Shown here: piece after piece, positions 10,211-29,009 of the stretch
Position numbering within the stretch: position 1 is the first letter of the stretch
Layout: each line of letters begins with the position of its first letter
Assembly (NCBI GenBank): GCA_051880555.1
Contig: JBJEOE010000022.1
Coordinates: forward strand, 10,784-74,783
DNA from: Acutalibacteraceae bacterium
GTDB taxonomy: Bacteria; Bacillota; Clostridia; Oscillospirales; Acutalibacteraceae
Direction: 5' to 3'
Length of the DNA: 64,000 nt
Program-made: the position numbers and the translations under genes
Notes under the pieces: generated by a model
Told to the model about the DNA's origin: nothing
Databases searched by the model: none
The model's input: only the letters and a program-made list of their open reading frames with translations

Positions 10211-10224
10211 CTGTTTCTCCCCCT

Positions 10225-11622: not shown

Positions 11623-11637
11623 AACCTTTTCTCCTTT

Positions 11638-12077: not shown

Positions 12078-12104
12078 GGCGGCAGCGGAAGCTCCGCTAC
12101 CGCC
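12078..12104 (-). terminator. Rho-independent terminator hairpin (paralogue of 17502-17528)
   Basis: ggcggcagcgga-agc-tccgctaccgcc stem-loop, followed on the minus strand by a T-rich tract. It lies 24 nt after the stop of the anchor remnant. Confidence 0.6.
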
Positions 12105-12127
12105 ATCCTTAAATGGTTATCTATCTG

Positions 12128-12421
12128 TTATTTCACAGATTTTCTTTTTTTAGTATCAACAGTAGTTGTCACAATGCCGAAGCCGCTGACGAACAGCAGA
12201 GCGATCCACAGCCACATCATGCTGTTATCGCCGGTCTGCGGAGACTGAAGATCAGCGGAAGACTTGTTGGTATCGTCAGGATTCGTAGTGGTTGTACCAA
12301 CATTGTACTCGCAGGTATAGCACTTGCCATCGTTGTTAGCGTCTGCGTGAGCAGCCTTGCTGTTCTCGATGATAACGCCACAACCTGCTACGCGTTTTCT
12401 CTTGTGATTTTCCTCCTGATT
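12128..12421 (-). pseudogene. C-terminal remnant of a sortase-anchored Cys/His-repeat surface protein (paralogue of 17552-20008)
   Basis: The open frame has no start codon. It reads ...VAGCGVIIENSKAAHADANNDGKCYTCEYNV...SPQTGDNSMMWLWIALLFVSGFGIVTTTVDTKKRKSVK. It shows about 75-80% nt similarity by eye to 17552-17665, including the 3' flank and terminator. Confidence 0.65.
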
Positions 12422-12949
12422 TTATTTTGAAGATTCAAATTCAATATTGTTTAGGATATTTTGCACCTGCGGAGATTCATAGATTGAAAGGTAATTGCCA
12501 TTTGCGGCGATTTCGTCAAACGGATACACAGAGAACAACACAAAGACGTTAAAGGTCTCGTCGGAATCGTCCAGTAAAATATAGCCGTAAATGCCGTCGT
12601 CGTCAGAATAGTAGCCCGTGTATTTTCCGAAAGCGGTCTCTTTGTAGATCTCATTTTCAGTTTTAGCGCTTTCCTGGGATTGGGCGTAGGCATCTTTTGA
12701 CTCGATGTACAGTGTCAGATCTGCCACATAGTTTTTTGCCTCGTTTTCAATGCGGACGAAATTGGGCTCGTTCTCGTCAAATTCCGTCACCTCGTCATCC
12801 GTGCCAAGATTGATATGAGCTTGATATTTCTTGTCATTCATATGCGTGAAATCGTATTTCAAATCGATCCCCGCGCCATTGGCTCCGTTGCAGGCTGCAA
12901 GGGAGAGGAGCATCATTCCCGCGATCAAAATTGCTAAAAATTTTTTCAT
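12422..12949 (-). CDS. Hypothetical lipoprotein
   Basis: MKKFLAILIAGMMLLSLAAC lipobox, followed by an acidic Asp/Glu/Tyr-rich mature part. No family recognised. Confidence 0.7.
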   Translation of the reverse strand: MKKFLAILIAGMMLLSLAACNGANGAGIDLKYDFTHMNDKKYQAHINLGTDDEVTEFDENEPNFVRIENEAKNYVADLTLYIESKDAYAQSQESAKTENEIYKETAFGKYTGYYSDDDGIYGYILLDDSDETFNVFVLFSVYPFDEIAANGNYLSIYESPQVQNILNNIEFESSK

Positions 12950-12968
12950 TTTTACACCATCTCTTTCG

Positions 12969-13853
12969 TTATTTATTCCATGCTTTTACTTCCGCTTCGT
13001 CAGCGCGCCTTGTATAAACGGAAAGTCCTCCCGTTTGTGCGTCCTCCATAGCGTTCATATTCTGCTGAATTTCGGCTTTCTTCTCGTCCGTAAGGCTGTC
13101 CCCGCCGTCTTTTGCGACCTTTACAGCGTCCATAGCATTTTTTACACCGGCAACCGTTGCCATAAAGTCGCGCTTTTCTTTCTTATTCATACCAAAGCTG
13201 AACAAGCCGTTTTCGTCGTCATGTACGCCGAAAATGGCATTGAAATGCGCGATGGCGCCATTTGTGTAATCCGTTTCGCTCTCTGAGGTGTGAAAAACAA
13301 CCTTGATTTCGCGCTTGACATACGGATGCGCTCTAAGGCCCTTTTGAGCCTTTCCCGGATCATTTTCAATCTGATCCAGTAGCCCCACAAGGCGGATCTT
13401 CACGCCCGATTCCTTAAAAGTTTCAGGCTTTCCCGCCTCTGTGGGCTTTTCGGTCTCCACATATTTCTCGTAGCTAAGCACTTGGTCATAGCGGAATAGT
13501 TCATGGTATTCCTTGCGCTGTGAGGTATCCCGGTCCATGATCTCGAACATCCCCACCTCGTCCGCAAAGGAGATGGCCTGCTTTCTGAACGCTGAGGGAT
13601 AGGTGTCCCTCCTGGCATCCGCAAAGCAAGTCTGATACAGTTTCTCCTGCCGCTTCATGTACTCGATATGCTCGCTCACTTCCTCCTTTGTCATTTCGGA
13701 AAGGCGCACGAACATACTGCACTTGCGTTTGCAGTCATTGCATACGAACTCTCCGCCTTTGATTTTCGTACGGTGCATAACGCCGCATTCGTTGCCGCAA
13801 AGCGTACACACCTGTTTGCCGAAGGTTTTCTTAAAAAAATCTCCTAAGCCCAT
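12969..13853 (-). CDS. Hypothetical protein with N-terminal C4 zinc ribbon (DUF4428-like)
   Basis: MGLGDFFKKTFGKQVCTLCGNECG...FVCNDCKRKC at the N-terminus. The remainder is an uncharacterised soluble domain. Confidence 0.65.
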   Translation of the reverse strand: MGLGDFFKKTFGKQVCTLCGNECGVMHRTKIKGGEFVCNDCKRKCSMFVRLSEMTKEEVSEHIEYMKRQEKLYQTCFADARRDTYPSAFRKQAISFADEVGMFEIMDRDTSQRKEYHELFRYDQVLSYEKYVETEKPTEAGKPETFKESGVKIRLVGLLDQIENDPGKAQKGLRAHPYVKREIKVVFHTSESETDYTNGAIAHFNAIFGVHDDENGLFSFGMNKKEKRDFMATVAGVKNAMDAVKVAKDGGDSLTDEKKAEIQQNMNAMEDAQTGGLSVYTRRADEAEVKAWNK

Positions 13854-13895
13854 CTTCTTATTTCCTCCTTGTGATTTTTTATTTCATAATTCTTT

Positions 13896-14360
13896 CTATG
13901 TAACGTTTTCATCTCGCTTTTCCGATTTGATACTTTCAATAATCATGCAGACATCGGGATCATCCAAAGAAATTCTTTCTCCATTGTTTTCGAGTAAAAG
14001 CATCACTTGAAATACTGCTTTATCTTCATAAGCTTCAAGCATAATATAGGGATACCCCATACTTGTGCATGTGTAACCGTACCACACATATCTGCCCATC
14101 TCAAAAGGTTCTATATCATTAACATTATCATAGAAATCTCTCGCCTGAAGATAAATTATATCTTCACCGTAATAGCATATTGTAATACCTACCTTACGGA
14201 ATACATCTGTTTCAAGTTCTATGTTTTTATAAATATGCACCTTTTCGGAAGTCTCTTTTCCGCCTGAGTCAATTCCCCTAAACAGTTTCCATCCCGCTGG
14301 GACACAAACGCTGATTACACCGTTTTTATATATCTGACTTTTCATATCCGTCACGCCCAT
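13896..14360 (-). CDS. Hypothetical protein
   Basis: 154-aa ORF packed tightly in a co-directional array; the alternative start is the ATG at 14345. No recognisable motif. Confidence 0.6.
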   Translation of the reverse strand: MGVTDMKSQIYKNGVISVCVPAGWKLFRGIDSGGKETSEKVHIYKNIELETDVFRKVGITICYYGEDIIYLQARDFYDNVNDIEPFEMGRYVWYGYTCTSMGYPYIMLEAYEDKAVFQVMLLLENNGERISLDDPDVCMIIESIKSEKRDENVT

Positions 14361-14950
14361 GGATTTTCACTTGCGGGCACTCTTATATCAGAAAGGCATT
14401 GAATGTCGTTTAAAAACCATTGCCCTGTAGACGGCTTTTTGCGAAGCTTTATAGACCTCATATTATCACCGCCACCGCTTTTAACCCAAAGAGTTGCCCA
14501 ATTTTCATTGTCAAACGAGTATGGATTTTCGTATATGGCTATGATATATGGTGTTGATGGCTTATATCCGTTTTCGGGAGTTGCGCCGTTAAAAAATGAG
14601 AAAGGCTTATAGGATTTCCCTTCAAGCCGTTCTTTGATAAACTGCTTTTCATATGTACTTACATTTTCAGGACCTTTGAGAAAATCAAGCATTTCAAATG
14701 TTGCATCACAATCCTCTTTATATCTGCAAAGTACAGCAAGAGTTAAAGCTGCTGTTTTGAACGGAGAATCAAGCGTCGATTCGGGCAGAGCCTGCAGTTC
14801 GCTCAAGTTTGTCGGCAGAGAGGAAAAGGTAAAGCTTTCAGAACGATTTTTGCCTTTTCCTATGGATTGAGCTACATCGGTTACTGCTTTTGTAGTCTCT
14901 TTTTTAATAGTGTTTCCTGCTGCTTTCATTAGCGAATCAAAAAATCCCAT
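14351..14950 (-). CDS. Hypothetical protein
   Basis: GGAGG lies 7 nt upstream of the ATG at 14950 (MGFFDSLMKAAGN...). Soluble, with no recognisable motif. Confidence 0.65.
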   Translation of the reverse strand: MGFFDSLMKAAGNTIKKETTKAVTDVAQSIGKGKNRSESFTFSSLPTNLSELQALPESTLDSPFKTAALTLAVLCRYKEDCDATFEMLDFLKGPENVSTYEKQFIKERLEGKSYKPFSFFNGATPENGYKPSTPYIIAIYENPYSFDNENWATLWVKSGGGDNMRSIKLRKKPSTGQWFLNDIQCLSDIRVPASENPWA

Positions 14951-14963
14951 AACATAACCTCCG

Positions 14964-15401
14964 TTAATCAATCTTTTTAAATTTCATTGTCATAAATGTG
15001 AAAAAACCGTTTTCGTCTATAGCCTTTGTCCACGAATCGTCTCCTATACCGGTATCATACCAAAGTTCGCCGTCTTTTTCTTCCCAAGCTATTGCTTTAT
15101 CGGACAGCATATCGTCAATAAGCATAAACTCTCCCGTGTCTATCACTTTTTTAAGCTCTGCTTTTGACACTCCGTCAGGTATAGGCATAAGGAAATACAG
15201 TTTGCCGTCATCACAAATTTTTACCTGCATGCCGATCGCTTTCTTTCTTTCGTTTATTTCATCAGCAACTGCTTCTTCGTCAGTTTCATCAATATAGGGC
15301 ATAGGTGATGCAAGATATTCATCACCGTTTAAGTAAATCATACCTTTTTCATCATCTTGCGTTCCTATAGAATTAAAAACCCATTTTCCGATATAGTTCA
15401 T
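14964..15401 (-). CDS. Hypothetical small acidic protein
   Basis: AGGAGG lies 7 nt upstream of the ATG at 15401 (MNYIGKWVFNS...). About 145 aa and strongly acidic. Confidence 0.65.
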   Translation of the reverse strand: MNYIGKWVFNSIGTQDDEKGMIYLNGDEYLASPMPYIDETDEEAVADEINERKKAIGMQVKICDDGKLYFLMPIPDGVSKAELKKVIDTGEFMLIDDMLSDKAIAWEEKDGELWYDTGIGDDSWTKAIDENGFFTFMTMKFKKID

Positions 15402-15631
15402 AACTAAACCTCCTGTTTGATTTGTATAATTCACAAATAACTTTCTCCTTTTCAAAAGACTTATTTCTATTAAGAATCGGCGATCGGAAAGTCATCAGAA
15501 CACAGTGCTAAACAGCAGTTCGTCATCCGTCAGTCTTTACATTAAAGGCTCTCTACTCCAATAGAGGGTCTCGCTCTCAAAACACCGAATATACGTTTTT
15601 TCACAATGTGTTCTTCCTGAGGTGCTTTCGA

Positions 15632-16284
15632 TTAGAAATTGCCCGGCACCGCCGCACCTCGCTCAAAAAGATTTAATAGCTCTTTCATCGCCTCCAAGGG
15701 CAGGAAATTATCCTGATTGTCATTGGCATAGATGCTTTCGCGAGAGGCATACCGTACATCAAGCTGCGCACCGTACTCATTCGGAAGGCCCGCCACGGTA
15801 TAGTTGTGGCCGTTGTACTGTGCAAGGCTGTAGATCGCGACGAGAATCTGCACCTCGCCCAAAAATTTTGGCTTACCCGAAAGGAGTGCGTCTCTCCTGT
15901 GTCTCTCACCTGATACATTCCCCGGACAGCACCGTTCTCCAACTTCGCATGAAGTTGGTATATATGGTTTCCCAATTTCCCAGGCTCGGCGATATCCATC
16001 GTGGAAAACCGGCAGTCGAAGGAAATGATCTGAGTCGATTCAATGCTCTTGGGTGCGTTCAGGTCGCTGTTGTCCGTAACACCGCCATCAATGGGGTCGT
16101 CGTCCTCGCTGTGGGGCGGATTGCACAAGTGCGGTCCGCCTTGTGCCTGATACACCATGCCGTCCTTGTCATACACCAAGGCAAAGAACTTAAAGTACAC
16201 AAGAATCCCCAACGCAAGCACGGCCAGAACCGCCAGCGTGATCGATAGTGCCAATATCATAGATTTTTTCACTCCTTTTCCCAC
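15632..16284 (-). pseudogene. Membrane-anchored hypothetical protein interrupted by a 1-nt frameshift in a homopolymer
   Basis: The protein-like translation of frame 16284-15870 (...GETHSFRVSQNF) continues in the 15632-15862 frame (LGEVQILVAIYSLAQYNGHNY...). One extra T in the minus-strand T5 run (plus-strand A5 at 15861-15865) would fuse them into about 217 aa. Confidence 0.6.
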
Positions 16285-16293
16285 CTCGCTTAT

Positions 16294-16445
16294 TTATATG
16301 CTGTCCACAACAGCCGCAAGGTAACTTTCGGTGGCGGAAGTAAAGCGGAAAGCGTAGACAAGTCCGTCCTTTTTCGCATTGTCTCCCTCACGGGAAATTT
16401 CGGGTGCTGAGTTTTCATTGTGCAGCATTACGAGTTTACGCGGAG
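16294..16445 (-). pseudogene. 3' remnant of a receiver-like gene (paralogue of 23458-23844)
   Basis: Translates as KLVMLHNENSAPEISREGDNAKKDGLVYAFRFTSATESYLAAVVDSI*. The intact copy reads KLVMLCDENSAPDIAREVANAKKDGLIDAFFYSSVTEKYLTAALASL*. No 5' part and no start codon. Confidence 0.65.
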
Positions 16446-16459
16446 AACTTCCTTACAAA

Positions 16460-17107
16460 TTATCTTTCGGGATAGAACAGCTCGCAAAATATTTCTTTGA
16501 TGTAACTGACAGATATTTCTTTTTTGATACTGTATATCTTAAATCCCAAGAGACCTCTGCCGGAAGGGATACCGTTGCTTGTATCGTCAAATTCAAATCC
16601 GACAAAACATGCCTCGTAAGTCTCCTTTTCATTTGTTTTTTTATATGTGCTTTTAATGCGCTTTACGGGTTTATTCATATATGTAACACCAAGATCCGTT
16701 ACCTCCTGACGAAAACATTCAAGCTTTTCACCGGAATTGCTCAGTTCTCCTTTATAGTAATACTCTACGAAATCTTCGCTTTGTACTCTATTCTCAAAAC
16801 ATACTACGCCAAAAACCTCTGCACTCCAAGACGAATCATCCGCCCGAAGCCATACTCTATCTCTCGCATTAAGTGCAGTCCCGGGCGCAACGGTAAAATA
16901 AGCGTCAACCGGTCTGTAAAGCGTTATCGGACATTTGTCTGTACCATACACCATATTAACTTTTTCAACAGTCTTCTGCCTGCGAACAAACTCCGGATCA
17001 GGCATACCTGTATATCTCGGATTTTCCTTTGCCTTGCAACATGTAAAGCGAAAAACGGCAATACTCGCCAGCATTAAAAAAACTGATGACAAAAAGATAA
17101 TTTTCAT
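16460..17107 (-). CDS. Hypothetical secreted/anchored protein
   Basis: 215 aa with an N-terminal hydrophobic signal/anchor MKIIFLSSVFLMLASIAVF. No family recognised. Confidence 0.65.
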   Translation of the reverse strand: MKIIFLSSVFLMLASIAVFRFTCCKAKENPRYTGMPDPEFVRRQKTVEKVNMVYGTDKCPITLYRPVDAYFTVAPGTALNARDRVWLRADDSSWSAEVFGVVCFENRVQSEDFVEYYYKGELSNSGEKLECFRQEVTDLGVTYMNKPVKRIKSTYKKTNEKETYEACFVGFEFDDTSNGIPSGRGLLGFKIYSIKKEISVSYIKEIFCELFYPER

Positions 17108-17327: not shown

Positions 17328-17374
17328 TTATTACACGGATTTAAATCGTCCGGCACATCGTACTTTAGTGCAAA
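17328..17374 (-). promoter_or_regulatory. Putative activator-dependent promoter: conserved 22-nt motif + extended -10 (copy A)
   Basis: Minus strand reads TTTGCACTAAAGTACGATGTGC (17353-17374), then 17 nt, then TGTAATAA (17328-17335). The same motif and architecture recur at 23881-23925. Confidence 0.4.
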
Positions 17375-17501: not shown

Positions 17502-17528
17502 GGCGGCAGCGGAAGCTCCGCCACCGCC
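17502..17528 (-). terminator. Rho-independent terminator of the cohesin-protein gene
   Basis: ggcggcagcgga-agc-tccgccaccgcc hairpin, 24 nt after the stop at 17552. The minus strand is T-rich downstream. Confidence 0.65.
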
Positions 17529-17551: not shown

Positions 17552-20008
17552 TTATTTCACAGATTTTCTCTTTTTACCGTAAACGGCAGTTGTTACAACG
17601 CCGAAGCCGGAAACAAAGAGTAAAGCAATCCAAAGAGACATCATACTGTTATCGCCGGTCTGAGGAGAATCAGGTGATCCTGTGTTCGGGTTGTTTTCCG
17701 TCGGCTTACTCGAATCTCCAGGGTTTGAAGGTTCTGTCGGTGTTCCGGTCGCCGGAATTTCAACAGCAGTCTTCTTGTAGCCACAAACCTTACATTCTTC
17801 GTGCTTGGAACCCTTTTCGGTCGCCGTAGCATCCTTGTCAATCTTCCACTCAAATTCATGAGCTGAAACGTTCTGCTTCTCGCTGCAGCCGGAGCAGGTA
17901 TTCCAATGATTTGTTTCGTCAGATTCAAACTTCGTAGTGTCTACATCGTGGGTATGATCGAGAGCAGGGGTAATCACATATCCGCATACTGAGCACTTAA
18001 CCGCATCGGTTTCGGTTTCCTCTGCACGGTCAGGGGTATGAGCCGCCTTGCTGCTGTCAATTACAACACCACAGCCTGCTACAGTACAAATGTGCCAATG
18101 ATTATCCTTGTCAGACTTCCATTCGGTGCCTTCGGTATGCCCGAGAGGATCGCCTTCGGTTGCATGACATACGGAGCAGGTTTTAGGAGCAGTACAGGTA
18201 GCAGGCGTCCAGTTGTGCGCACCAAGTTCGCCGTACTCAAAGGTTGCCGTGTCCTTTTCACCGCAAGCGCAGGACTTGTAATAAGTAGCCTTTGCTGTGC
18301 AGGTGGCAACAGATGCCTTGTAAGCATCTGTTGCTACTTCCTTGTTAAACACATGGGTATGACCGAGCTGTGCTTCAATGACATATCCGCACTCGGTACA
18401 CTTAATAGCGTATTCCTCAGTTGCGTTACCTGTATGGTCGGGAGTATGACTTGCAAAATCGCATTTCTCTGTGCAGTTTGCAGTCTTGCAAGCATGCCAG
18501 TGACCGCTTGCATCACTTGACCACCCGGAAGCCGGATTATGCGCTGCCAGTCCACCGTACTCTACATTACATACATCGCAGACAGCCTTGTGCTGGCAAG
18601 TTGCAACATTCGCACCGGTAGAGCTATGTGCAACCTTGCTGCCGTCAATTACAACGCCACAACCCATAGTCGTACACTCTTTCCAGTGATAAGTGCCGTC
18701 ATTGTTCCAGGTAGAAGAGGGTGTGTGTGCGCCGGCAGGAATAGATGTACCGGCTGCAGTGATTTCATTACAGCCAAGGCACTTGGTGTCGCCGGTATAG
18801 CCGTCAATCTGATTCTTGTGGTCGGGTTCGCTGGCGTTAACGGTTGATGTTCCGCCTACATGGACGCTTGCATTCTTGTCACCCAAGAAAGTGTGAGCAT
18901 CGTTGTTTTCCACCTTTCCGCAGACAGAGCAGGAATAGTAGTACACCGCTTTGTCACGGCAGTTTCCGGCAGTTTTCAGCGCTTGTGCTTTCTTCGTTGC
19001 AGCAGTATAGCTGTGAGCAGCATAATTGCCGTAAGGCTGCTGACACACAGAACAAACGGCTTTAGCCGTACAGGTTGCTGTTCCTCCGGTGTGGTATGCA
19101 AGGTTACGAAACGGAGCCTCATTGATTTCTACATCGGATGTGTTGAAAAGCTGTCCGCAATCGTCACATTTCTTGTGCTCGTCCCAACCTTTTACCGTAC
19201 AGGTAGAGTCCTGTGCAGATACGGTGGACTTGTTTGTGTGAGCACAGGATACCGTTACCGTACAGGTATCGGTAAAGTTTCCGTCAGCAGTTTTGACGGT
19301 GATGGTGGCGGTGCCTTTCTTAACACCGGTTACTGCTCCGGTTGTCGCGTTTACAGTGGCAACGGAAGTATCGCTGGATGTAAACGAAACAGTTTTGTTT
19401 GTTGCTTCTGCAGGTGCAACAGTGAAAGACGGGGTCTTTGTTTGACCGATATTGACGGACAGCGTCTCGTCAATTGTTACGCCTGTAACCGCTACAGGTG
19501 CGGCAGTCACTGTGACAGCAGCAGGAATGACAGAATAATCAGAGGTATGATCTTCCCACGTCTGGCAAGAATAAAACTCCAGATTGTCAAGACCAACTTC
19601 GAGTGTTCCGCCTGCGCCATTGTTTACTGTGCACTGGAAAGTAGCTATCACAGTATCTGTGTTGCTACTGTAATCAGCGGCGGATGCAACACCGTTAATT
19701 CGTTTTGTGACTTCCGTCCAGTCTGCTGTATCAAAGCCTAAAGTCTCTTTTAGACCGACTGCCAGCTTACCGGAGTTTGCCACATAGGTTAATCCTTCGG
19801 GAATAACCAGGTCCATCTGCATGGTACCCATATCTGAAACGGGACCCAGCGTAATGGTATAGGTGATGGTATCACCCGGAGATGCTTCTGTTTTGTCGGC
19901 AGTTACTTTTAGATAAACCGGACCGGCAGCCATTACGGGTACTGCAGTTACCAGCAATGACAGAACCATAACAAAACAAAGCAATAGGGATGTGATTCGC
20001 TTGTTCAT
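17552..20008 (-). CDS. Sortase-anchored surface protein: signal peptide - cohesin-like module - Big_2 Ig-like domain - ~490-aa Cys/His-rich repeat stalk - SPQTG sorting signal
   Basis: GGAGG lies 9 nt upstream of the ATG at 20008. Cohesin-like VYLKVTADKTEASPGDTITYTITLGPVSDMGTMQMDLVIPEGLTYV...TLEVGLDNLEFYS. Big_2-like VTGVTIDETLSVNIGQTKTPSFTVAPAEATNKTVSFTSSDTSVATVNATTGAVTGVKKGTATITV. C-terminus SPQTGDN + hydrophobic helix + KKRKSVK. Confidence 0.8.
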   Translation of the reverse strand: MNKRITSLLLCFVMVLSLLVTAVPVMAAGPVYLKVTADKTEASPGDTITYTITLGPVSDMGTMQMDLVIPEGLTYVANSGKLAVGLKETLGFDTADWTEVTKRINGVASAADYSSNTDTVIATFQCTVNNGAGGTLEVGLDNLEFYSCQTWEDHTSDYSVIPAAVTVTAAPVAVTGVTIDETLSVNIGQTKTPSFTVAPAEATNKTVSFTSSDTSVATVNATTGAVTGVKKGTATITVKTADGNFTDTCTVTVSCAHTNKSTVSAQDSTCTVKGWDEHKKCDDCGQLFNTSDVEINEAPFRNLAYHTGGTATCTAKAVCSVCQQPYGNYAAHSYTAATKKAQALKTAGNCRDKAVYYYSCSVCGKVENNDAHTFLGDKNASVHVGGTSTVNASEPDHKNQIDGYTGDTKCLGCNEITAAGTSIPAGAHTPSSTWNNDGTYHWKECTTMGCGVVIDGSKVAHSSTGANVATCQHKAVCDVCNVEYGGLAAHNPASGWSSDASGHWHACKTANCTEKCDFASHTPDHTGNATEEYAIKCTECGYVIEAQLGHTHVFNKEVATDAYKASVATCTAKATYYKSCACGEKDTATFEYGELGAHNWTPATCTAPKTCSVCHATEGDPLGHTEGTEWKSDKDNHWHICTVAGCGVVIDSSKAAHTPDRAEETETDAVKCSVCGYVITPALDHTHDVDTTKFESDETNHWNTCSGCSEKQNVSAHEFEWKIDKDATATEKGSKHEECKVCGYKKTAVEIPATGTPTEPSNPGDSSKPTENNPNTGSPDSPQTGDNSMMSLWIALLFVSGFGVVTTAVYGKKRKSVK

Positions 20009-20185
20009 GATCAAGCTCCTCCTTTAATAATATATTTGCGGGACGTCCCTTTACACACCAATTTTGAGGTCTCGCTTAGTCTCAAAACGGCGGCACAGAT
20101 TTCTCTGCGATTTATATATTCTTAAACCTCCGTTTCTTCCCCATATGGCGTATGGAGAAGATACTTTGGTGTTAAGACAATTGAA

Positions 20186-23100
20186 TTACCAAAGAAGTGA
20201 TGTACCTCTTGCATGGGCATTGAGCCTTCCGGCGTCAGCCGTTGTCACAAGTCCGTCCTGTTTCACAGTATCGGCACATAGAAGCTCATAACCTGTGAGT
20301 ATTGCGACGCCTCTTGCGTGAGAGTTTGCACGACCAAAATCAATTGTAGTTACTTTGCCGTCACCGTTGATGTCGCCCAATAGATGTATCTTTACATCCT
20401 GAATAACGGAGCTGTTACCGACAACTACGGTGTACTCACGGGTGACGTGGTTGTTTTTACTTACCTTCAAGGTATAGGTACCGGCGGAAACGCCTTCGAT
20501 GGAATACTCAGCGATTTTGCCCTTGACGAAAACCTCATAGTCTGCCTCGGAGTTGCCCTCGGCAATCAACTGAAGAGTGACGTCATCGGTATTGCTGGCG
20601 AAGCTGGTGGCTGTGCCGGAAACGGTAATATCGCTGGTAGCGGGTCGCGGTGTGGGCTTAAAGGTGTAGCACAGGTTTATAGGTTTGTTAGCACCAGTAT
20701 AATATGCATGGTTAAAATATTCTTCTAAATCTTCTTTATTGGCATCCTTCGAGTTAATCATTTCAAGCTCTACGCCGTTTAACGATGTTTTACCTGTAAA
20801 GCAATCGAAATAAGCAACCCGATAGTCTATGTTATTATCCACAACAATGTTTGTTTCAATTTGCACATCTACCCTATAAACCATACCGGCGATAAAGGTT
20901 GTATTGGCAGGTAGTTCTTCGCCTAATGCATCATACCAGGTTATTTTAGTAACTTCGTAAAGATGAGGTGCAAGGGTGGTGGCAACATAATCGGGTGTGC
21001 CGCCTGCTATTGGTTGAGAAAGCTCTATAACACCAACTTTACTTAACGTTTGCTCTGAACAATTGAATACATATTTAACCTCTTGTTCAAAGTTAAGGCC
21101 TGAACCATATAGGGTAGTATAGTCACCGGGATTTCCGTTTACTATAACAGAAGGCACGGTTGGAGGATCTGTTTTCGTATTCATTAAAAACTCATACCCT
21201 TGATCCGTCTTAACATAAACCTCACACTGATACTTATGGTCGGGTAAAAATACATCTTTGTCATAAACATATTCATAACCGCCGTCGGTTACATCCCACC
21301 AGGAAACACCGTTTTTAACATAGTACCACTTTTGATTTGCCGAATAAGAATAATAATAACTGTTTTTGCTTGTATTAATACTGTATCCTGTGCCGAGAAC
21401 TCTTGCAGTATAGTCAGGGTGTTCGCCTGCTTTTGGCGGTGTTACCTCAATTCTAATATTCCTAATAATAGTTGCATTACATTCGCCAAAGAGCATAGAT
21501 ACTCGTATTTTAGAGGTTGAAGCCTCCTCAACACCATAAACATAAGCAGGTTTGCCGTTAACTGTAGCAGTAACGCAGGAATCAAATTCATAAGGATTAA
21601 CTAATTCAACAGGGAAACCGTAACCGTTATTAGCAACAACATCAAAGGAAACTTTATAATGCCTTGCGCCTATAAATGTAGAGGTTACCATGGGGGTATA
21701 GGTTTGAATGTCAGAACTGAATACTTCCCATTTAACACTGTTAGTGGGTACATAATATGCACTGCTTGAAGCAGTAACTGCTGTTGAAGGCTTTTTGTTT
21801 TCAACAGGGGCGGCGATATTTAAAGCTACCTCTTCAACTGCTTTGGGGCAGGTACCAAAGTTAGGTCTTAGGTGGATTGTCGTATTATGATTGGAAAGAC
21901 CTGTGCCTACTTTTTTTCCGTTAACCTTTCCCATATAACCACTGGGGAAACATAAATAATTTGTAGTGTATATTACAACCTCGGCACGGTATTCTTTTCC
22001 TGCTGTGAAAACCATACCCTCTGTCATACGGTTATCGTTTTCGTACCATTTAATTTCTGATAATCTACAGTTACTCGGCAAGGGAAAAGCACCAATAAGC
22101 ACTCTGATATCACTGACGGGCTTCATTCCTGCAACAGGCTTATGCATTTCAATTTCCATTGAATCCATAATGCCGTAAATTTCTACCTCTTTTGCGGGAT
22201 TGCCGTTACTGTCATATATACCCTCCGAATCATAAGTAGCTCCTTGAGGGGTATGAACCGATAATCCTTCATCAATTATCAGTTCTATACATTTAACTGC
22301 TGAATAGTCCCCTTTAGGTCCTGACATTTTAAAATATCCGCTATAAAAGTGACTATCACCCAGTCGTCCAAATACACCGTGACCGCCGTTGGTTTTAATA
22401 TCATAAACACCGCCAAGATAGGTTGAATTACCTTTAATAGCAGGCTCATCTTTTCCTGTTGCAGTAATTTTAGCATCAGCGCAACGTAAATTAATTATAC
22501 CTACGGCTGATATTGGTTCATCGGCAGTAATATGAAGCTGCTCCAAGGCGGGAAGCTTCCTTGCATCACCGCTTGCTGAGCCTTTTGAATAAATACTGCC
22601 ATTTTGGGTACTTAAACCAAATCTTTCAGCGTTTATGATTATTCTTCCGCCAAGGTAGATATGATTATCCGTAAGACGAGAATCTGATGTAGCGATACCG
22701 TCCACATTGGAATTAATTATGCAGTATTTTGAAACTATAACGGTTACACAATTTCGTGAACGTATAGCAGTATTTTCGGAATAAATTTCCAAAGTTTCAC
22801 AGTTAATATAAGTGTCATAAAAACCAGTCATTCCGCATTCTTTAAGTGCCCTTATGTTAACGGTTTTTGAATTTATAGTTATATTAGTGGCACTAAGAGG
22901 ATAATTACCGTAAATCACGAGCTCAGAACAGTATACAGCAAATTTCCAAACTTCAATTGTTGGTTCATCATATTTTTCAGATGTAGAAGTAACAATTAGC
23001 GGAGCATAGCAGATGAAATCATGAACCTCAATAGTTCGCTCAGCGTTTGTAATATTCAGGGGCTCGCTACCGGTTATTGTAAGGTTGTATTCTCCCGTAA

Positions 23101-23308
23101 TGGATTTAAGGTAAAGCTCCTTATCCATTATAAGCTCAGTATCCGAGTTAAGGGTAAGGTGTGTGTTATTTGAGATTTGACTCGCATACAAAACGGGCAC
23201 TTTAGCACCCTCAGCAAGCACGGAAATACAGCTAAAAGGAATTGTGGCTAAAATCAGCGTTGCCGTCAAAATAATGCTTAAAAGCTTTTTGTAAAAATTA
23301 TTTTTCAT
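20186..23308 (-). CDS. Large secreted dockerin-bearing protein of unknown function
   Basis: Signal peptide MKNNFYKKLLSIILTATLILATIPFSCISVLAEG. It has four internal repeats of ~110-140 aa. The C-terminal dockerin has loops GDINGDGKVTTIDF and a degenerate second loop DTVKQDGLVTTAD. No catalytic motif recognised. Confidence 0.8.
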   Translation of the reverse strand: MKNNFYKKLLSIILTATLILATIPFSCISVLAEGAKVPVLYASQISNNTHLTLNSDTELIMDKELYLKSITGEYNLTITGSEPLNITNAERTIEVHDFICYAPLIVTSTSEKYDEPTIEVWKFAVYCSELVIYGNYPLSATNITINSKTVNIRALKECGMTGFYDTYINCETLEIYSENTAIRSRNCVTVIVSKYCIINSNVDGIATSDSRLTDNHIYLGGRIIINAERFGLSTQNGSIYSKGSASGDARKLPALEQLHITADEPISAVGIINLRCADAKITATGKDEPAIKGNSTYLGGVYDIKTNGGHGVFGRLGDSHFYSGYFKMSGPKGDYSAVKCIELIIDEGLSVHTPQGATYDSEGIYDSNGNPAKEVEIYGIMDSMEIEMHKPVAGMKPVSDIRVLIGAFPLPSNCRLSEIKWYENDNRMTEGMVFTAGKEYRAEVVIYTTNYLCFPSGYMGKVNGKKVGTGLSNHNTTIHLRPNFGTCPKAVEEVALNIAAPVENKKPSTAVTASSSAYYVPTNSVKWEVFSSDIQTYTPMVTSTFIGARHYKVSFDVVANNGYGFPVELVNPYEFDSCVTATVNGKPAYVYGVEEASTSKIRVSMLFGECNATIIRNIRIEVTPPKAGEHPDYTARVLGTGYSINTSKNSYYYSYSANQKWYYVKNGVSWWDVTDGGYEYVYDKDVFLPDHKYQCEVYVKTDQGYEFLMNTKTDPPTVPSVIVNGNPGDYTTLYGSGLNFEQEVKYVFNCSEQTLSKVGVIELSQPIAGGTPDYVATTLAPHLYEVTKITWYDALGEELPANTTFIAGMVYRVDVQIETNIVVDNNIDYRVAYFDCFTGKTSLNGVELEMINSKDANKEDLEEYFNHAYYTGANKPINLCYTFKPTPRPATSDITVSGTATSFASNTDDVTLQLIAEGNSEADYEVFVKGKIAEYSIEGVSAGTYTLKVSKNNHVTREYTVVVGNSSVIQDVKIHLLGDINGDGKVTTIDFGRANSHARGVAILTGYELLCADTVKQDGLVTTADAGRLNAHARGTSLLW

Positions 23309-23457: not shown

Positions 23458-23844
23458 TTAAAGGGAAGCGAGCGCTGCCGTCAAGTATTTTTCGGTTACA
23501 GATGAATAAAAGAAGGCGTCGATCAGCCCGTCCTTTTTCGCATTGGCTACCTCACGGGCAATGTCGGGTGCTGAGTTTTCATCGCACAGCATTACGAGTT
23601 TACAGGACGGAATTTTTTCCCTTACTTGTTTTACTTCTTTTAATCGTGTCTCCATAGTCGTGCCGGAAGCATAAGATACATCCAACAAGAGGATGTCGGC
23701 AGATAGAGCTTCACAGTCATTTGCGATATTGCTCTTTTTCTGAATCAGAACACGAAAAGGCTTAAACTCGCCACTGTTTTTGAGCATTTTAATAATTGCT
23801 TCGGATAGCAGACCGTTTCCGATGCAGACAACGATATTTTTCAC
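23458..23844 (-). CDS. Stand-alone receiver-like (pseudo-receiver) protein
   Basis: 128 aa with a CheY-like alternation pattern and a candidate phospho-Asp in ILLLDVS. The N-terminal acidic pair is replaced (VVCIGNG). Confidence 0.65.
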   Translation of the reverse strand: MKNIVVCIGNGLLSEAIIKMLKNSGEFKPFRVLIQKKSNIANDCEALSADILLLDVSYASGTTMETRLKEVKQVREKIPSCKLVMLCDENSAPDIAREVANAKKDGLIDAFFYSSVTEKYLTAALASL

Positions 23845-23880: not shown

Positions 23881-23925
23881 ATTATACAGATTCGTATTGC
23901 TCCGCACATCGTACTTTAGTGCAAA
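23881..23925 (-). promoter_or_regulatory. Putative activator-dependent promoter: conserved 22-nt motif + extended -10 (copy B)
   Basis: Minus strand reads TTTGCACTAAAGTACGATGTGC (23904-23925), then 15 nt, then TGTATAAT (23881-23888). It lies 37 nt upstream of the receiver-like gene. There is no good -35 hexamer. Confidence 0.45.
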
Positions 23926-23940: not shown

Positions 23941-23967
23941 AAAAAAAGTGCCGCCTTTAGACGACAC
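23941..23967 (-). terminator. Terminator of the two-component operon
   Basis: Minus strand reads gtgtcgtc-taaa-ggcggcac (with G-U pairs) followed by a T7 run. It lies 19 nt after the regulator stop. Confidence 0.5.
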
Positions 23968-23985
23968 TTAATGTGTGATTTTTGA

Positions 23986-24609: not shown

Positions 24610-25889
24610 AGGATGTCACCTCTTTTCTTCAGAACGGTTAGCTTGAGAACAAATTCCGGCTGATACACCACTTCCATAGTCCCTCCGATTTGTTCTGTTT
24701 TCAGCCTGAGAGAGCCAAGACCGCCGCCCTCAACCGGTTTTTTCTGCGGATTGGCGCCGTCATTCGTAAAGCAAACGGAATATGCTGTGTTATCTTCCGA
24801 GAACGCAATACGCAGCGTTTTTGCATCGGCGTGCCGTACTGCATTGGTGAGTGCTTCTGTGGCAGCTTCAAAAAACAGCCGATTCGCATCTTCCTGCTTT
24901 GGCATCTGTCCGGTGATAAGCACTTCAATTCCGGCAGAGTGTGCAGCCTTCATAAGCATATCCAAAGGCTCATCATTTTTCGGGCTTTCCGATTCCAAGC
25001 GAAGCATCGCTATATTACGCTTCAAAACATTAAGCAATTCTTGAGTGTTTTCACTCTCACCCTGTAAATAGCGGCGTGTCAAAAGCAATGCCTGCCCAAG
25101 CTCACTGTGAATACGGGCTTTTGTTTCCAGACGCTCTTTTTCGCGCGTCAGCTCATCAACATTTTCGCCGTACTTACGCAGACGTTCATTCATAACAGAA
25201 AGCTCTGCATTCTTTTCTTTCAGTTTTTCCGTCAGCTTGTTCAGCCGTGTTGTTTCCGCTGCCGTGAGCTGGGTAATACCGCCTAACACCTCACGGGCGA
25301 AAGTCCACACCGTCTGATCGGGCAAACGGAGGGTTGGGGTTTCACCCATAAAAATCCTTGCCACGCCCGTCTGTATTTCTCCGTCATTCAGGTTGTCCCA
25401 AAACGCATTGGCGTTCTGTAAATCTCTGCCGAATATTGTGTGGCTCAAATTGTCCATTCGGTGATTGATAAGCATTACCATACCGTTTTTGTAAGCAAAG
25501 CAAAGACCTGTGTTAAGCCAGTCAAGACTTTCCTTTACCGACGAGCGAGTGATGGCGTTCTTTTCAAAATTTCTTTCCTTAATCACAATCGTCAAAAGTG
25601 TAGCAATGATAGCAAGCAGCAGTAAAATCGGAATTATTACCGGCAATGCTGTAACACTCTCAATAATCGGAGTTATATGCCAAGACGGATGAGCCGATTT
25701 TACCTGAGCTGCAAACAAAATCAGAATTGCTCCGCTGAGCAAAAAGCAAAGGGGAACAAGCAACTTCGGCATCAGCTTTTTCCTGCTGAAAACACGAGGC
25801 AAAAGGCAGACGCTCGAACAAACCGCAACAAAGGTTACGACAAGAAAGAATGACTTTACTGCATAATGCAAATCACAAAAGCCTATCAT
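24606..25889 (-). CDS. Sensor histidine kinase (HisKA_3 / NarL-partner type)
   Basis: N-terminal TM helices, a coiled coil, an H-box RIHSELGQALL, an N-box EALTNAVRHA and a G-box GGGLGSLRL. Overlaps the regulator gene by 4 nt. Confidence 0.85.
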   Translation of the reverse strand: MIGFCDLHYAVKSFFLVVTFVAVCSSVCLLPRVFSRKKLMPKLLVPLCFLLSGAILILFAAQVKSAHPSWHITPIIESVTALPVIIPILLLLAIIATLLTIVIKERNFEKNAITRSSVKESLDWLNTGLCFAYKNGMVMLINHRMDNLSHTIFGRDLQNANAFWDNLNDGEIQTGVARIFMGETPTLRLPDQTVWTFAREVLGGITQLTAAETTRLNKLTEKLKEKNAELSVMNERLRKYGENVDELTREKERLETKARIHSELGQALLLTRRYLQGESENTQELLNVLKRNIAMLRLESESPKNDEPLDMLMKAAHSAGIEVLITGQMPKQEDANRLFFEAATEALTNAVRHADAKTLRIAFSEDNTAYSVCFTNDGANPQKKPVEGGGLGSLRLKTEQIGGTMEVVYQPEFVLKLTVLKKRGDIL

Positions 25890-27547
25890 TTGCCGTCGCC
25901 TCCCTCTGAAAGAAGCAAAGTAACGGTAACATCCTCATCCTGAATGTCCCATTCAAACGTTCCGCAAGGAATAGACAACTCTGACAATGTATGCTCGGCA
26001 ATATCTTGACTACAGCCTATCTGCAACCGCATTTTTATGAAGCCGTCTTTGCAGTCAAGATGTATCAGCATAGCGGTGGCATCGTCAAGCAGTCTTTCGA
26101 CGATATTTTCATAAAAATCGAAAGCAACGACTGCGTGTTCCAATTTGAGTGTACCGTCGCATTTGCTGTCAAATGATGTGAAAACATCCCCAAGCCGCAA
26201 ATTGTCAAGGGACTCTCTGATACAGTATTCAAGTTCTATCGCAGGTATGATATTGCCTTCCTCTCCCAGCATCAGGAGATTGCCACGCCTTTTGATATAC
26301 GCACAAATCACGGATACCTTTGCAATCGCTCTTTTTGTTTGCTCCGGATCGGTCTGGGCAAGCTTCAATAGTTCCTCTGCTTTTGCAAGCTGAACGGCGA
26401 CTTCCTTGGCAATCCGGTCATACAAACGGCTCTTTTCCTGCGTCCGAGCACGGTTTTCCTTCAGCTCCAGCTCGGCTTTCAGCAATTCGTTGCTTTCTCC
26501 GAGCCTTTCCTGCGTATCACGGAGTTCTTCTATCAGGTCGTTAATCTGTTTTACATCGTCCTGCCAAAGAACATGACCGCCGGTAATTGCTTTGCTGTGC
26601 AGTATGGTATCTCCCAAGTCAACCGGTTCGGCTTCGGCACTTCTCATTACATCCTCGGTCAGTGGTGCCAATGTGCCTGAAACCATACAGGGCTGATAAT
26701 CGACATCAACAATCTGTGCAGATACCGTTGAATTTCGGAACAGTTCGTAATAATTTGTATTAGACGGGATAAGACCGCTTTGGATTGCGCTTTCCAAAAG
26801 GGCAATAATCATTATGCAGTCAATCGCCGCCAAATCACCGCCAACTATATGCATACAATACATAATCCAAAAGATTATGGAAATAACCAAAATGACTGCG
26901 GGGAGCTTTTGAAAGCTCTTGCTTCCGGGTACACGGCTCTTTTTAATCAGCATTACCACGAAATATATGCCCAAGAGGATAAACCACGCCATCGTAATAT
27001 AATACAGAATATAGTATATGCAATCCGACTCGCAGTTTTCAAGTCCATTCGGGAATGAAAAAACAAGCTGATGAAGATCGTTTGTAAAAACCGCTGTTAC
27101 AAGAAATGTCGCAGGTATGTACATATATTTTAAGCTATTTGGTGTTTTATAGTTTTCCGCTTTACCGATATGGTCAATAATGAACACACCCAAAAGAGGG
27201 ACAAACACCATCGGAATATAATAGGAATACCACAGGTAACGCCCTAAATGTGTTCCGTTTTGGGCAATAAACTCCCATTTGCAGGTTCTCAAAATAAGCC
27301 AAAATGCCAGCAGTATTCCCACTGCAATGAGATAATGGCGCACCTGTATATTGATAATTCTTGTTCTGAAAGACGAACACCACGCAATGACAAGGGAAAT
27401 TTGAATAACGCTTCGGGTCATAACCAAAAGCATTTTAAGAATAGGGTTATCAACTTCAGTATGGAACGCCCGGGAATAATATGCGATTACAAGCAAAATA
27501 GCGACACCAATTGTGTATAATATCGTCTTTTTGTTCGTTTTTTCCAT
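25886..27547 (-). CDS. Polytopic membrane sensor with degenerate histidine-kinase-like C-terminus (pseudo-kinase)
   Basis: GAGGTG lies 6 nt upstream of the ATG at 27547. It has about 7-8 TM helices. The dimerisation-like helix reads EKSRLYDRIAKEV, with Tyr where the phospho-His of HisKA_3 is expected. No N or G boxes were seen. Overlaps the kinase gene by 4 nt. Confidence 0.65.
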   Translation of the reverse strand: MEKTNKKTILYTIGVAILLVIAYYSRAFHTEVDNPILKMLLVMTRSVIQISLVIAWCSSFRTRIINIQVRHYLIAVGILLAFWLILRTCKWEFIAQNGTHLGRYLWYSYYIPMVFVPLLGVFIIDHIGKAENYKTPNSLKYMYIPATFLVTAVFTNDLHQLVFSFPNGLENCESDCIYYILYYITMAWFILLGIYFVVMLIKKSRVPGSKSFQKLPAVILVISIIFWIMYCMHIVGGDLAAIDCIMIIALLESAIQSGLIPSNTNYYELFRNSTVSAQIVDVDYQPCMVSGTLAPLTEDVMRSAEAEPVDLGDTILHSKAITGGHVLWQDDVKQINDLIEELRDTQERLGESNELLKAELELKENRARTQEKSRLYDRIAKEVAVQLAKAEELLKLAQTDPEQTKRAIAKVSVICAYIKRRGNLLMLGEEGNIIPAIELEYCIRESLDNLRLGDVFTSFDSKCDGTLKLEHAVVAFDFYENIVERLLDDATAMLIHLDCKDGFIKMRLQIGCSQDIAEHTLSELSIPCGTFEWDIQDEDVTVTLLLSEGGDGK

Positions 27548-27792
27548 CGCGTTCACCTCGCTTTTTCTTAAAAATGTACTGCATTTCCGCACAAATTCCG
27601 TACGGATACAAAAACCTATTTTGTATTATATCATATTTTCCGACAAATTTCAATCCGTCCCTTGTATTGGTGATCTTCAATCGCAAAATGTTGTCATCCC
27701 ACCTGCTAAGTTGATAATCTGTTTATTCTGTTTTTTTGCGTACAGGACTGTCTGATATGCTCCTCCACTTTTACGTTCAATATATCACAACA

Positions 27793-28040
27793 CTAAATCG
27801 GCTCTGTCAACCATCTCACGATTGCGAATCTGCATTGCGGCTTTGAAATGCGCCGCCGAGGAACTTTGGCATATCTCCACTTCGTCGTAATACTCTTGAA
27901 AAGCTCCTTCATTCTTTTCATACTCAGCCGACAGATATGGACTCCCAGTGCATTTAGAGTTGCCAGTGCACCCATAGTTTTGTAGGTCAGTGTTTTGACG
28001 TGCTGCTAGTGCAATGAGTCCTGTCAGTGCATAAAAAAAG
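27793..28040 (-). pseudogene. Possible remnant of a SLOG/DUF1273 (YpsA/YoqJ-like) gene
   Basis: Start-less open frame ...ALTGLIALAARQNTDLQNYGCTGNSKCTGSPYLSAEYEKNEGAFQEYYDEVEICQSSSAAHFKAAMQIRNREMVDRADLVL*. The ...M-x-x-RN-x-x-MVD-x-x-D-L-V tail resembles that family from memory only. Confidence 0.3.
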
Positions 28041-28170
28041 ACCCTGCGTACCTAAAAGGTACACAAGGTCTTTTTTCTCATTATTCTCTTGTTTTTTCTT
28101 TTTTCTCTCACGCTAAAAAAGTTTGTCCTTTTTTGGCGGGTTGAGATTAAAAAGGGTTATACAAGAACAA
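27945..28170. repeat. Direct repeat R1 (226 bp), near-identical to R2
   Basis: Matches 30250-30484 base for base, apart from one ~9-bp indel (cccatag/ttttgtagg vs cccaaaagttctgcagttttgtcgg) and a few substitutions. Confidence 0.9.
28033..28076. terminator. Bidirectional terminator-like hairpin inside R1
   Basis: A7 - gaccctgcgtacc - taaaa - ggtacacaaggtc - T6. Confidence 0.55.
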
Positions 28171-28174
28171 TAAC

Positions 28175-28343
28175 TGTTACAGGACAAACCTTTTTAGCGT
28201 CAAAGGGACAAATTTTTTTATCCTCGTTTTTCTCTTTTTTCTCTCGTTTTGACCCGCCCTTTTTCTTTCTCTTTTTCTCCAATTTTCTCTCCGTTTTTCT
28301 CATCATTGGGTCAAGCCTAATGAGAATTGCGGAGTGCAATTTA
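28175..28343. repeat. Repeat S1 (169 bp), about 85% identical to S2, with a long polypyrimidine tract
   Basis: tgttacaggacaaacctttttagcgtcaaagggacaaattttttta...gacccgcccttttt...gcggagtgcaattt aligns with 29828-29994. Confidence 0.85.
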
Positions 28344-28991: not shown

Positions 28992-29009
28992 ATTTTTCTC
29001 CTATAATCT

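Follow-up and report, generated by a model that had tools for sequence, protein, structure and literature searches.

The window analysed here, a 64,000-nt stretch of contig JBJEOE010000022.1 (positions 10,784 to 74,783, forward strand; assembly GCA_051880555.1) from an Acutalibacteraceae bacterium, carries two adjoining co-directional genes that we call DocP and CohP. Both were found as open reading frames (ORFs) on the minus strand, at the coordinates given in the preliminary description of this DNA; DocP encodes a predicted secreted protein ending in a dockerin, and CohP a predicted wall-anchored protein headed by a cohesin. As called, the CohP ORF has as its first codon a TTG at 20014, but its start is probably the ATG at 20008, because homologues begin MNKRITS and AAGGAGGAG stands directly 5′ of that ATG; the product is thus probably 818 aa long. 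The two genes are 177 nt apart, and a strong ribosome-binding site precedes CohP. A gene for a small receiver-like protein, pREC128, lies upstream, giving the order pREC128, DocP, CohP. The block is bracketed by terminator-like hairpins, with none found within it (our hairpin scan of the window lists none between DocP and CohP), which suggests that pREC128, DocP, and CohP are transcribed as a single unit. Searches for exact copies of the DocP and CohP sequences returned no match. Coordinates of all features are collected in Table 1.

CohP has one cohesin only, at its N-terminus. Residues 36–137 score 24.0 bits against Pfam Cohesin (PF00963), whose cut-off is 24.1, and a precomputed PF00963 match is present in some CohP homologues. 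A profile of 24 homologous N-terminal modules matches cohesins first among Protein Data Bank (PDB) sequences (3l8q, E 8e-6), with further matches to 1qzn (E 0.004), 1zv9, 3f2l, 3bwz, and 3kcp. The AlphaFold2 (AF2) model of the module, built on the alignment of these 24, has a predicted local distance difference test score (pLDDT) of 96.4 and a predicted TM-score (pTM) of 0.90, and a Foldseek search with it gave 136 PDB matches at E≤1e-3. Cohesins of types I, II, and III account for 49 of the 50 matches listed, the other being the CLIPPER adhesin domain 9ifr; TM-scores, normalised to the query, run from 0.50 to 0.68 among these 50, and identity to known cohesins from 11 to 23% in the matches listed. 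The best match is Coh5 of Ruminococcus flavefaciens ScaB (5n5p_A, E 1.9e-9, TM 0.68), and an archaeal non-cellulosomal cohesin (2xdh) is also among the fold matches. The module, first described as cohesin-like, is thereby confirmed as a cohesin fold at the level of the predicted structure, and the earlier reservation that it might not have that fold falls away.

At the other side of the putative interface, Foldseek matches the C-terminal ∼160 residues of DocP to type II X-module–dockerin (XDoc) dyads with probability 1.00 (5k39_B, 4u3s_B, 4wi0_B, 5m0y_B, 2b59_B, and 5g5d_B). In the model a beta-sandwich X module lies directly N-terminal to the dockerin, as in dyads of type II/III, and this X module is the beta-sandwich-like segment noticed at the outset. 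Its sequence matches are slight: 18.5 bits to Pfam CarboxypepD_reg and a weak match to 4u3s_B. The dockerin has a canonical first loop, DINGDGKVTTID (D1, N3, D5, D12), and a 13-residue second loop, DTVKQDGLVTTAD, without N3 and D5; both are as originally read, the second being one residue longer. That longer loop recurs in three related loci (L100, L101, L102) and in two further proteins (P0281, P0283), and as DVVGTDGTVTTMD in L008 and L016; judged by this recurrence, it is a conserved dockerin subtype and not decay. AF2 places helices at residues 988–998, 1006–1012, and 1023–1033. Pfam Dockerin_1 (PF00404) gives the window protein 16.5 bits and does not reach its cut-off of 22.9, yet it matches all 28 aligned members of the DocP family at E≤0.01 (best 5.5e-13), with relatives scoring 29.9 (P0003), 39.4 (P0035), and 23.7 bits (the L008 protein). 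Since orthologues reach the threshold, the family assignment of the window dockerin rests on homology. Both modules of the proposed pair thus hold up, the cohesin through AF2 and Foldseek and the dockerin through its orthologues and the XDoc fold matches.

The remainder of CohP is predicted to form a stalk and a wall anchor. The preliminary description had named the cohesin as the only recognisable module of the protein; this needs correction, as a Big_2 Ig-like domain (E 8e-14) and zinc-binding repeats are also present. The stalk contains 36 Cys and 29 His in 508 aa and is homologous to ZBD1 and ZBD2, zinc-binding domains of the Thomasclavelia ramosa IgAse (9qa6). The C-terminal region of that IgAse has been described as ZBD1-BB8-ZBD2-SPQTG, with SPQTG annotated as the sortase site (PMC12237041). 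CohP ends in SPQTGDNSMMSLWIALLFVSGFGVVTTAVYGKKRKSVK, and two sortase-signal hidden Markov models (HMMs) score it below their cut-offs (srtB_target 17.2 against 18.15 bits, Gram_pos_anchor 15.5 against 20 bits). With a single cohesin and a C-terminal sortase signal, for which processing is predicted, CohP has the layout of anchoring scaffoldins of the ScaE/Sca2 type. The single cohesin, Big_2 domain, stalk, and sortase-type end together suggest that CohP would be a wall-anchored stalk with one distal cohesin.

The pairing of the two modules is best seen by comparing loci. Across 10 loci, cohesin identity follows the identity of the adjacent dockerin (Mantel r 0.94, reached by 0 of 20 000 permutations); the co-variation was also computed in an earlier 7-locus version. 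Control comparisons in the same 10 loci give −0.11 for cohesin against X module, 0.20 for Big_2 against dockerin, and −0.08 for X module against dockerin. Dockerins several kb from the cohesin also match it: the three in L010 are identical, including those on its first and second cargo proteins, and those within L019 and within L100 are near-identical, including those on downstream cargo. In a prospective test, L100, L101, and L102, picked solely for their window-like cohesins (84–99%), all had the window-type dockerin in flanking proteins (93–100%), 13-residue loop included. DNA homology between the window and L001, L005, and L007 stops at the first dockerin codon (window ∼20388), and homology to L008 starts in the X module and continues through CohP. 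In these alignments the cohesin and dockerin modules move jointly from locus to locus, the breakpoints falling at the edges of modules, and the CohP cohesin and DocP dockerin are very probably cognate partners.

The narrow DocP family comprises 39 proteins, all from gut metagenomes or from metagenome-assembled genomes of Oscillospiraceae or ‘Ruminococcus’. Orthologues share 75–91% identity over the body of the protein, yet they end in at least six unrelated dockerins, and no CohP-like sequence occurs in the examined flanks of those with other dockerin types. In L001, L003, L005, L007, and L013–L015, where sequence continues, the gene 3′ of DocP is instead a 158-aa ORF, followed where the flank is long enough by a serine recombinase with Resolvase, Recombinase, and Zn_ribbon_recom domains. 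Seen from the anchor, the association is constant: every CohP-type gene whose surroundings were retrieved (L008, L009, L010–L012, L016–L018, L019, L020, L100, L101, and L102) has a neighbour ending in an XDoc dyad, whose dockerin mostly ends in LLW, or in SLW(E/S) in L010, L020, and one L016 neighbour. Conservation of the pair as neighbours, which the first reading called for, accordingly applies to CohP-type genes and not to DocP orthologues with other dockerins. Nor is the pair self-contained, as first supposed: two or three dockerin proteins accompany a single anchor in L010, L019, and L100, and the window dockerin subtype is found on other cargo (P0281, 710 aa; P0283, 1291 aa).

The XDoc dyad itself is widespread, with 1270 representatives at E≤1e-10 in an exhaustive search of a library clustered at 50% identity, and it is C-terminal in all 150 representatives listed. 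(A word-index search with the dyad had returned nearly all short fragment ORFs, and the exhaustive library search was used instead; a metagenome scan with the CohP alignment picked generic Big_2 peptides and so mostly unrelated Big_2 proteins, L020 being the only useful locus.) A Pfam census of 57 XDoc representatives found Flg_new in 12 and Flg_new_2 in 9, along with LRR_5, LRR_8, Big_2, transglutaminase-like, Laminin_G_3, malectin, and SH3_3 families and one strong Cthe_2159 match; none had a glycoside hydrolase (GH), polysaccharide lyase (PL), carbohydrate esterase (CE), or peptidase family. Pfam likewise detected no enzyme family in any cargo gene examined beside CohP-type anchors, and family-specific HMMs found no other cohesin or dockerin in the window. 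Dockerin-bearing GHs on multi-cohesin scaffoldins, the mark of a cellulosome or amylosome, are thus absent from the window, the 57 XDoc proteins, and the neighbours of CohP-type genes. By their domains, XDoc-family cargo look like adhesins (Listeria–Bacteroides repeats, leucine-rich repeats (LRRs), Ig-like domains). The initial view of a dedicated display system rather than a cellulosome agrees with this enzyme-free, non-enzymatic census once its claim of self-containment is dropped.

What DocP would display is its N-terminal domain and four repeats. The full-length AF2 model (pLDDT 72) has a confident beta-rich region (40–375), poorly modelled repeats (380–890), a confident beta-sandwich (895–975), and the three dockerin helices. 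In this model the N-domain is probably a beta-solenoid of the Cthe_2159 family; as a sequence match the link is a weak lead, not membership. Pfam Cthe_2159 (PF14262) gives the window protein 14.7 bits (E 0.019) and does not reach the gathering score of 25.8; it matches 13 of 28 DocP orthologues at E≤0.01 (best 1.1e-7), and the orthologue P0035 scores 31.9 bits. Six of the 28 orthologues also have weak fn3_3 (PL4 domain II) matches. When the full model was compared by Foldseek with the PDB and BFVD, the XDoc dyad was the only part identified; matches of the N-domain and of the repeats were non-specific, to multi-domain beta-sandwich arrays. The Asn/Ile/Thr richness ascribed to the N-terminal region amounts to mild enrichment (Ile/Thr/Asn 10.7/8.4/6.7%). 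The repeats were correctly recognised: the motif P-x-AG-x-x-P...W...F-x-x-G-x-x-Y...VNG is visible in all four units, and hhalign links R2 with R3 (91.6%) most strongly, then R3 with R4 (78%) and R1 with R3 (49%), the remaining pairs being weak. A BLASTP self-comparison of DocP did not find the internal repeats, and profile comparison was needed. Pfam at E≤0.01 finds no GH, carbohydrate-binding module (CBM), peptidase, or S-layer homology (SLH) family in DocP or CohP, in agreement with the preliminary description; its broader statement that no carbohydrate-active module is present is qualified by the weak Cthe_2159 match.

Table 1. Features of the DocP–CohP locus and its surroundings (window coordinates unless another locus is named)
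Feature	Coordinates	Strand	Basis or remark
DocP gene	20186-23308	minus	1040 aa
DocP signal peptide, aa 1-32, MKNNFYKKLLSIILTATLILATIPFSCISVLA	23213-23308	minus	read from sequence alone
DocP N-terminal beta-rich domain, aa 33-377	22178-23212	minus	AF2 pLDDT about 90, many short strands
DocP four divergent repeats (R1 aa 378-490, R2 491-612, R3 613-753, R4 754-886)	20651-22177	minus	motif reading and hhalign; no Pfam family; AF2 pLDDT 45-80
DocP X module, aa 887-972, beta-sandwich	20393-20650	minus	Foldseek; AF2 pLDDT about 88
DocP dockerin, aa 973-1040, C-terminal LLW	20189-20392	minus	sequence, AF2, orthologue homology
CohP gene	17552-20008	minus	818 aa from likely ATG
CohP start and signal peptide, MNKRITSLLLCFVMVLSLLVTAVPVMA	19928-20008	minus	sequence reading
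CohP cohesin module	19490-19927	minus	hypervariable among homologues, 31-99% identity
CohP Big_2 Ig-like domain	19256-19489	minus	Pfam Big_2 8.1e-14; PDB 7quz E 1.4e-13
CohP Cys/His-rich stalk	17729-19252	minus	PDB 9qa6_A E 1.5e-34
CohP Pro/Ser/Thr linker, SPQTG sortase motif, transmembrane helix, KKRK tail	17555-17728	minus	sequence and weak HMM
SPQTG sortase motif	17654-17668	minus	sequence reading
Terminator-like hairpin 3′ of CohP	17502-17525	minus	hairpin scan
pREC128, receiver-like single-domain protein, 128 aa	23458-23844	minus	hhalign to adjoining receiver domain
20-bp box TTTGCACTAAAGTACGATGT	23906-23925	minus	upstream of TATAAT before pREC128
Second 20-bp box copy TTTGCACTAAAGTACGATGT	17355-17374	minus	upstream of next operon (215-aa ORF, 16460-17107)
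Terminator-like hairpin 3′ of regulator gene	23946-23969	minus	10-bp stem, then T run
NarL/LuxR-type response regulator, 207 aa	23986-24609	minus	Response_reg 5.6e-18, GerE 3.5e-16
Histidine-kinase-like protein, 427 aa	24606-25889	minus	HATPase_c_2 18.7 bits, sub-cut-off
Sensor protein, 568 aa, N-terminal seven-transmembrane (7TM) region of histidine-kinase type	25886-27592	minus	HisKA_7TM 26.6 bits, cut-off 28.6
DUF6935 gene	14351-14971	minus	member of recurring gene set
DUF4428 gene	12969-13853	minus	member of recurring gene set
SPFH/Band_7 gene with double zinc ribbon	10225-11622	minus	member of recurring gene set
TPM-domain gene	8323-9120	minus	member of recurring gene set
158-aa ORF and large serine recombinase in place of CohP	L001 13167-16663; L003 13163-16055; also L013, L015		

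A putative regulatory unit precedes the block. The response regulator is clear, and the two sensor-kinase-like proteins score below family cut-offs; the kinase-like gene overlaps both of its neighbours by 4 nt and is conserved across all DocP loci, and the 7TM sensor gene is kept upstream of DocP in L001–L003, L007, L010, and L013. The small protein pREC128 has no match among Pfam families or PDB sequences. Its receiver likeness comes from hhalign against the adjoining receiver domain (99.95% over 119 columns, with low alignment diversity); it has GN in place of the acidic pair DD and keeps the Asp at the phospho-acceptor position (LLLDV). In all loci that cover the stretch, its gene directly precedes DocP. 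A pseudo-receiver and a two-component system had been proposed at this position, a proposal that stands for the regulator and is softer for the kinases and for the receiver likeness. The 20-bp box is present twice in exact form in the window (0.01 copies expected); both copies follow a terminator-like hairpin and lie ∼20 nt upstream of a −10-like hexamer. In most DocP loci examined, the 16-nt core of the box also occurs upstream of pREC. We infer that the box is a candidate operator of the response regulator.

Taken together, these results lead us to read the DocP–CohP locus as a ScaE/CttA-type module that serves surface display under regulatory control and outside any cellulosome, a reading to which we give a probability of about 0.72. 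Under this proposal, pREC128, DocP, and CohP would be transcribed as one unit from a promoter carrying the conserved 20-bp box and probably switched on by the adjoining 7TM sensor, kinase, and NarL-type regulator. Both DocP and CohP would be exported by Sec, CohP would be linked to peptidoglycan by a sortase, and the XDoc dyad of DocP would bind the CohP cohesin with calcium. Such docking would hold the N-domain and four Ig-like repeats of DocP tens of nanometres off the wall, where they may engage a ligand, for which a glycan or another surface is the likeliest candidate. CohP may then serve in general as a dock that carries one or several adhesin-like cargo proteins of the same dockerin subtype.

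Several points weigh against this proposal. The Cohesin and Dockerin_1 Pfam matches are both below cut-off in the window proteins, and a TLxTC motif search found no sortase gene in the window. Two-component control is read solely from position and the shared box. The pairing is drawn from co-variation and adjacency, and as the dockerin 3′ end lies ∼300 bp from the cohesin 5′ end, linkage within one tract could cause part of the correlation; the second L016 neighbour has a non-matching dockerin. Orthologues with four other dockerin types and no CohP in their examined flanks imply that DocP can use other anchors. As to the ligand, the Cthe_2159 score of the N-domain is weak (14.7 bits), its profile has no match among PDB sequences, and the repeats are poorly modelled.

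Some of the same observations would fit a larger network, in which the pair is a small part of a cellulosome- or amylosome-like system, CohP, as a general anchoring scaffoldin, also takes up dockerin-bearing enzymes whose genes lie elsewhere, and DocP has the part of an accessory subunit for substrate binding. The visible portion of the genome is 64 kb, a GH77 enzyme and a sugar-binding protein are encoded in the window and an alpha-amylase near L010, DocP orthologues with classical dockerin types must bind cohesins elsewhere, and the N-domain family Cthe_2159 is annotated as carbohydrate-binding. There is also a precedent in Ruminococcus bromii Sca2, whose dockerin partners include those on amylases, peptidases, and LRR proteins (PMC4611034). 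The lack of another cohesin or dockerin in the window, of any GH, PL, CE, or peptidase family in the 57 XDoc representatives, and of Pfam-detectable enzymes among all cargo genes seen beside CohP-type anchors make such a network unlikely in our view. Linkage invites a different doubt, namely that adjacency and co-variation are by-products of cassette recombination and that the DocP dockerin binds a different cohesin, or the cohesin-like domain of CohP a ligand other than a dockerin: the co-varying modules are ∼300 bp apart on DNA, one L016 neighbour is mismatched, and the CLIPPER domain 9ifr is among the fold matches, so that the fold is found outside dockerin-binding proteins too. Yet linkage does not explain the dockerins of L010, L019, and L100 that match in type from several kb away, nor the X and Big_2 modules that are equally linked and do not co-vary; breakpoints fall exactly at module borders, and 49 of the 50 Foldseek matches listed are dockerin-binding cohesins, so we regard this account as highly improbable.

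It is also improbable, if less extreme a suggestion, that DocP is itself an enzyme of an undescribed family, for example a beta-helix polysaccharide lyase or hydrolase, and that the locus serves catalytic display. The confident beta-rich N-domain is weakly linked to Cthe_2159, a family that resembles polysaccharide lyases, and 6 of 28 orthologues show the weak PL4 domain II matches; against this, Pfam detects no catalytic family, the N-domain has no PDB sequence relative, Foldseek returns no lyase or hydrolase, and sister cargo proteins are built from binding-type repeats.

The docking proposed here is of a known kind, but in this case a matched cohesin and dockerin change together from strain to strain. 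The closest analogue is the CttA–ScaE pair of R. flavefaciens, in which the XDoc dyad of a secreted, non-catalytic substrate-binding protein attaches to a single-cohesin partner that a C-terminal sortase signal fixes to the wall (PMC4266597). DocP and CohP share this arrangement of a non-catalytic XDoc protein and a wall-anchored single cohesin, and the best fold match of the CohP cohesin, 5n5p_A, is itself from R. flavefaciens. In R. flavefaciens the gene directly upstream of scaE is cttA, an order that DocP and CohP repeat. The systems differ in that DocP and CohP have no adjoining scaC-scaA-scaB scaffoldin genes and no detected CBMs, that the stalk of CohP consists of a Big_2 domain and zinc-binding repeats rather than a simple linker and its sortase motif is SPQTG, that the DocP dyad resembles type II in Foldseek whereas CttA–ScaE is type III, and that DocP–CohP has a dedicated upstream two-component system and strain-variable cohesin and dockerin subtypes. 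Sca2 of R. bromii, a 534-aa protein of the human gut amylosome with one cohesin and a C-terminal sortase signal, has been put forward as an anchor of general use at the cell surface, one whose partners also include dockerins on LRR proteins and peptidases (PMC4611034). CohP resembles it in both of these structural features; unlike Sca2, which binds amylase dockerins, no enzyme-borne dockerin of the window subtype was found in the 57-protein census, and the cargo genes of CohP adjoin the anchor and co-vary with it. From both CttA–ScaE and Sca2, the present system is set apart by the stalk of Big_2 and zinc-binding modules, cargo that is enzyme-free in all cases examined, the regulatory unit, the absence of nearby scaffoldins, and cassette swapping.

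Other systems share single elements. In CipA–SdbA of Clostridium thermocellum and ScaA–ScaB of Acetivibrio cellulolyticus, an X module is likewise packed on the dockerin, the two together attaching to an anchoring cohesin, and these provide the strongest structural matches. In those systems the anchor relies on SLH domains, and what it holds is a scaffoldin with many enzymes; CohP uses a sortase signal instead, and the docked DocP is the terminal cargo itself. The T. ramosa IgAse has a homologous zinc-binding stalk, the same SPQTG, a membrane-spanning helix, and a charged tail, and differs in carrying its metallopeptidase on the same polypeptide. As CohP bears only a cohesin head, its functional head would be supplied in trans. 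Cohesin–dockerin systems outside plant cell-wall degradation also include the toxin and glycosidase complexes of Clostridium perfringens and cohesins of archaea (2xdh); these link enzymes or toxins to one another and are not known to tie an adhesin-like protein to a wall anchor. Our literature search, within the collection of papers it covered, found no description of the CohP/DocP architecture or of strain-level cohesin–dockerin cassette swapping, and a term search of a 2026 AlphaFold survey of ruminococcal cohesins gave no mention of the architecture (PMC13463774).

A cohesin–dockerin pair is usually taken to indicate a cellulosome that degrades fibre. The same device here appears to display enzyme-free adhesin-like proteins in uncultured Oscillospiraceae of the human and pig gut, and as both modules are below their Pfam cut-offs, routine annotation would probably miss the pair. 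The cohesin–dockerin subtypes, at least five in number, matched by nature and mutually divergent, are candidates for use in synthetic biology as orthogonal connectors of high affinity. Should binding be subtype-specific, they would also form a natural test case for the diversification of interface specificity inside a single lineage, and if the cargo proteins act as adhesins on glycans of the host or its diet, the locus has a bearing on how gut strains adapt to their niches. A wider picture, which we offer tentatively and as a whole consider doubtful, is of a widespread adhesin-display platform of gut Oscillospiraceae in which LLW-type XDoc cargo docks on a zinc-stalk, sortase-anchored single cohesin; the interface would come in many lock-and-key subtypes that are specific to strains and exclude one another, matched cassettes would be moved by recombination at the borders of modules, so that one adhesin body is re-plugged onto different anchors, and selection would drive the diversification, for example through strain-private cargo or escape from phage or IgA targeting the distal module.

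Some further features of the region touch these genes. The two copies of the 20-bp box may define a small two-component-system regulon that includes the operon of the 215-aa ORF. Between this ORF and a 199-aa ORF lies an 80% identical copy (16313-16439) of an internal piece of pREC128 (23477-23603), with no intact ORF. In L016, a pREC-like gene of 127 aa (12944-13378) is directly upstream of another dockerin-protein gene, in a context (a GerE-type 542-aa regulator and a solute-binding protein) unrelated to that of the window; the receiver-like protein may therefore travel with cargo genes and not with the two-component system. The window also holds the 3′ relic of a second CohP-type gene (12131-12418, minus strand), ∼95 codons without start or cohesin that end in ...SPQTGDNSMMWLWIALLFVSGFGIVTTTVDTKKRKSVK. 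Its DNA is 89.7% identical to the 3′ end of the L008 homologue against 83% to the window CohP, and on this likeness the relic is a trace of past cassette turnover.

A mobile-element origin was considered for the locus, given the serine recombinase after DocP in L001, L003, L013, and L015 and the type IV secretion system or integrase genes near L016 and L019; housekeeping genes (PPDK, Clp ATPase, RuvB, GlmM, and AspRS) make up the flanks of the window. A gene set of unknown function at 8323-17107 (minus strand) recurs beside DocP or CohP-type loci on other contigs (L013, L016). GC content falls to 0.31 at 28001-30000, as compared to ∼0.46 elsewhere in the window; an ORF in this low-GC stretch (28341-28991, minus strand) has a DnaB_C-like P-loop match, and an adjoining 199-aa ORF has no family. 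On the plus strand, 3000-7529 encodes a sugar ABC transporter solute-binding protein, two more ORFs, and a GH77 4-alpha-glucanotransferase; the sugar-binding protein and GH77 enzyme suggest a maltodextrin- or starch-using organism.

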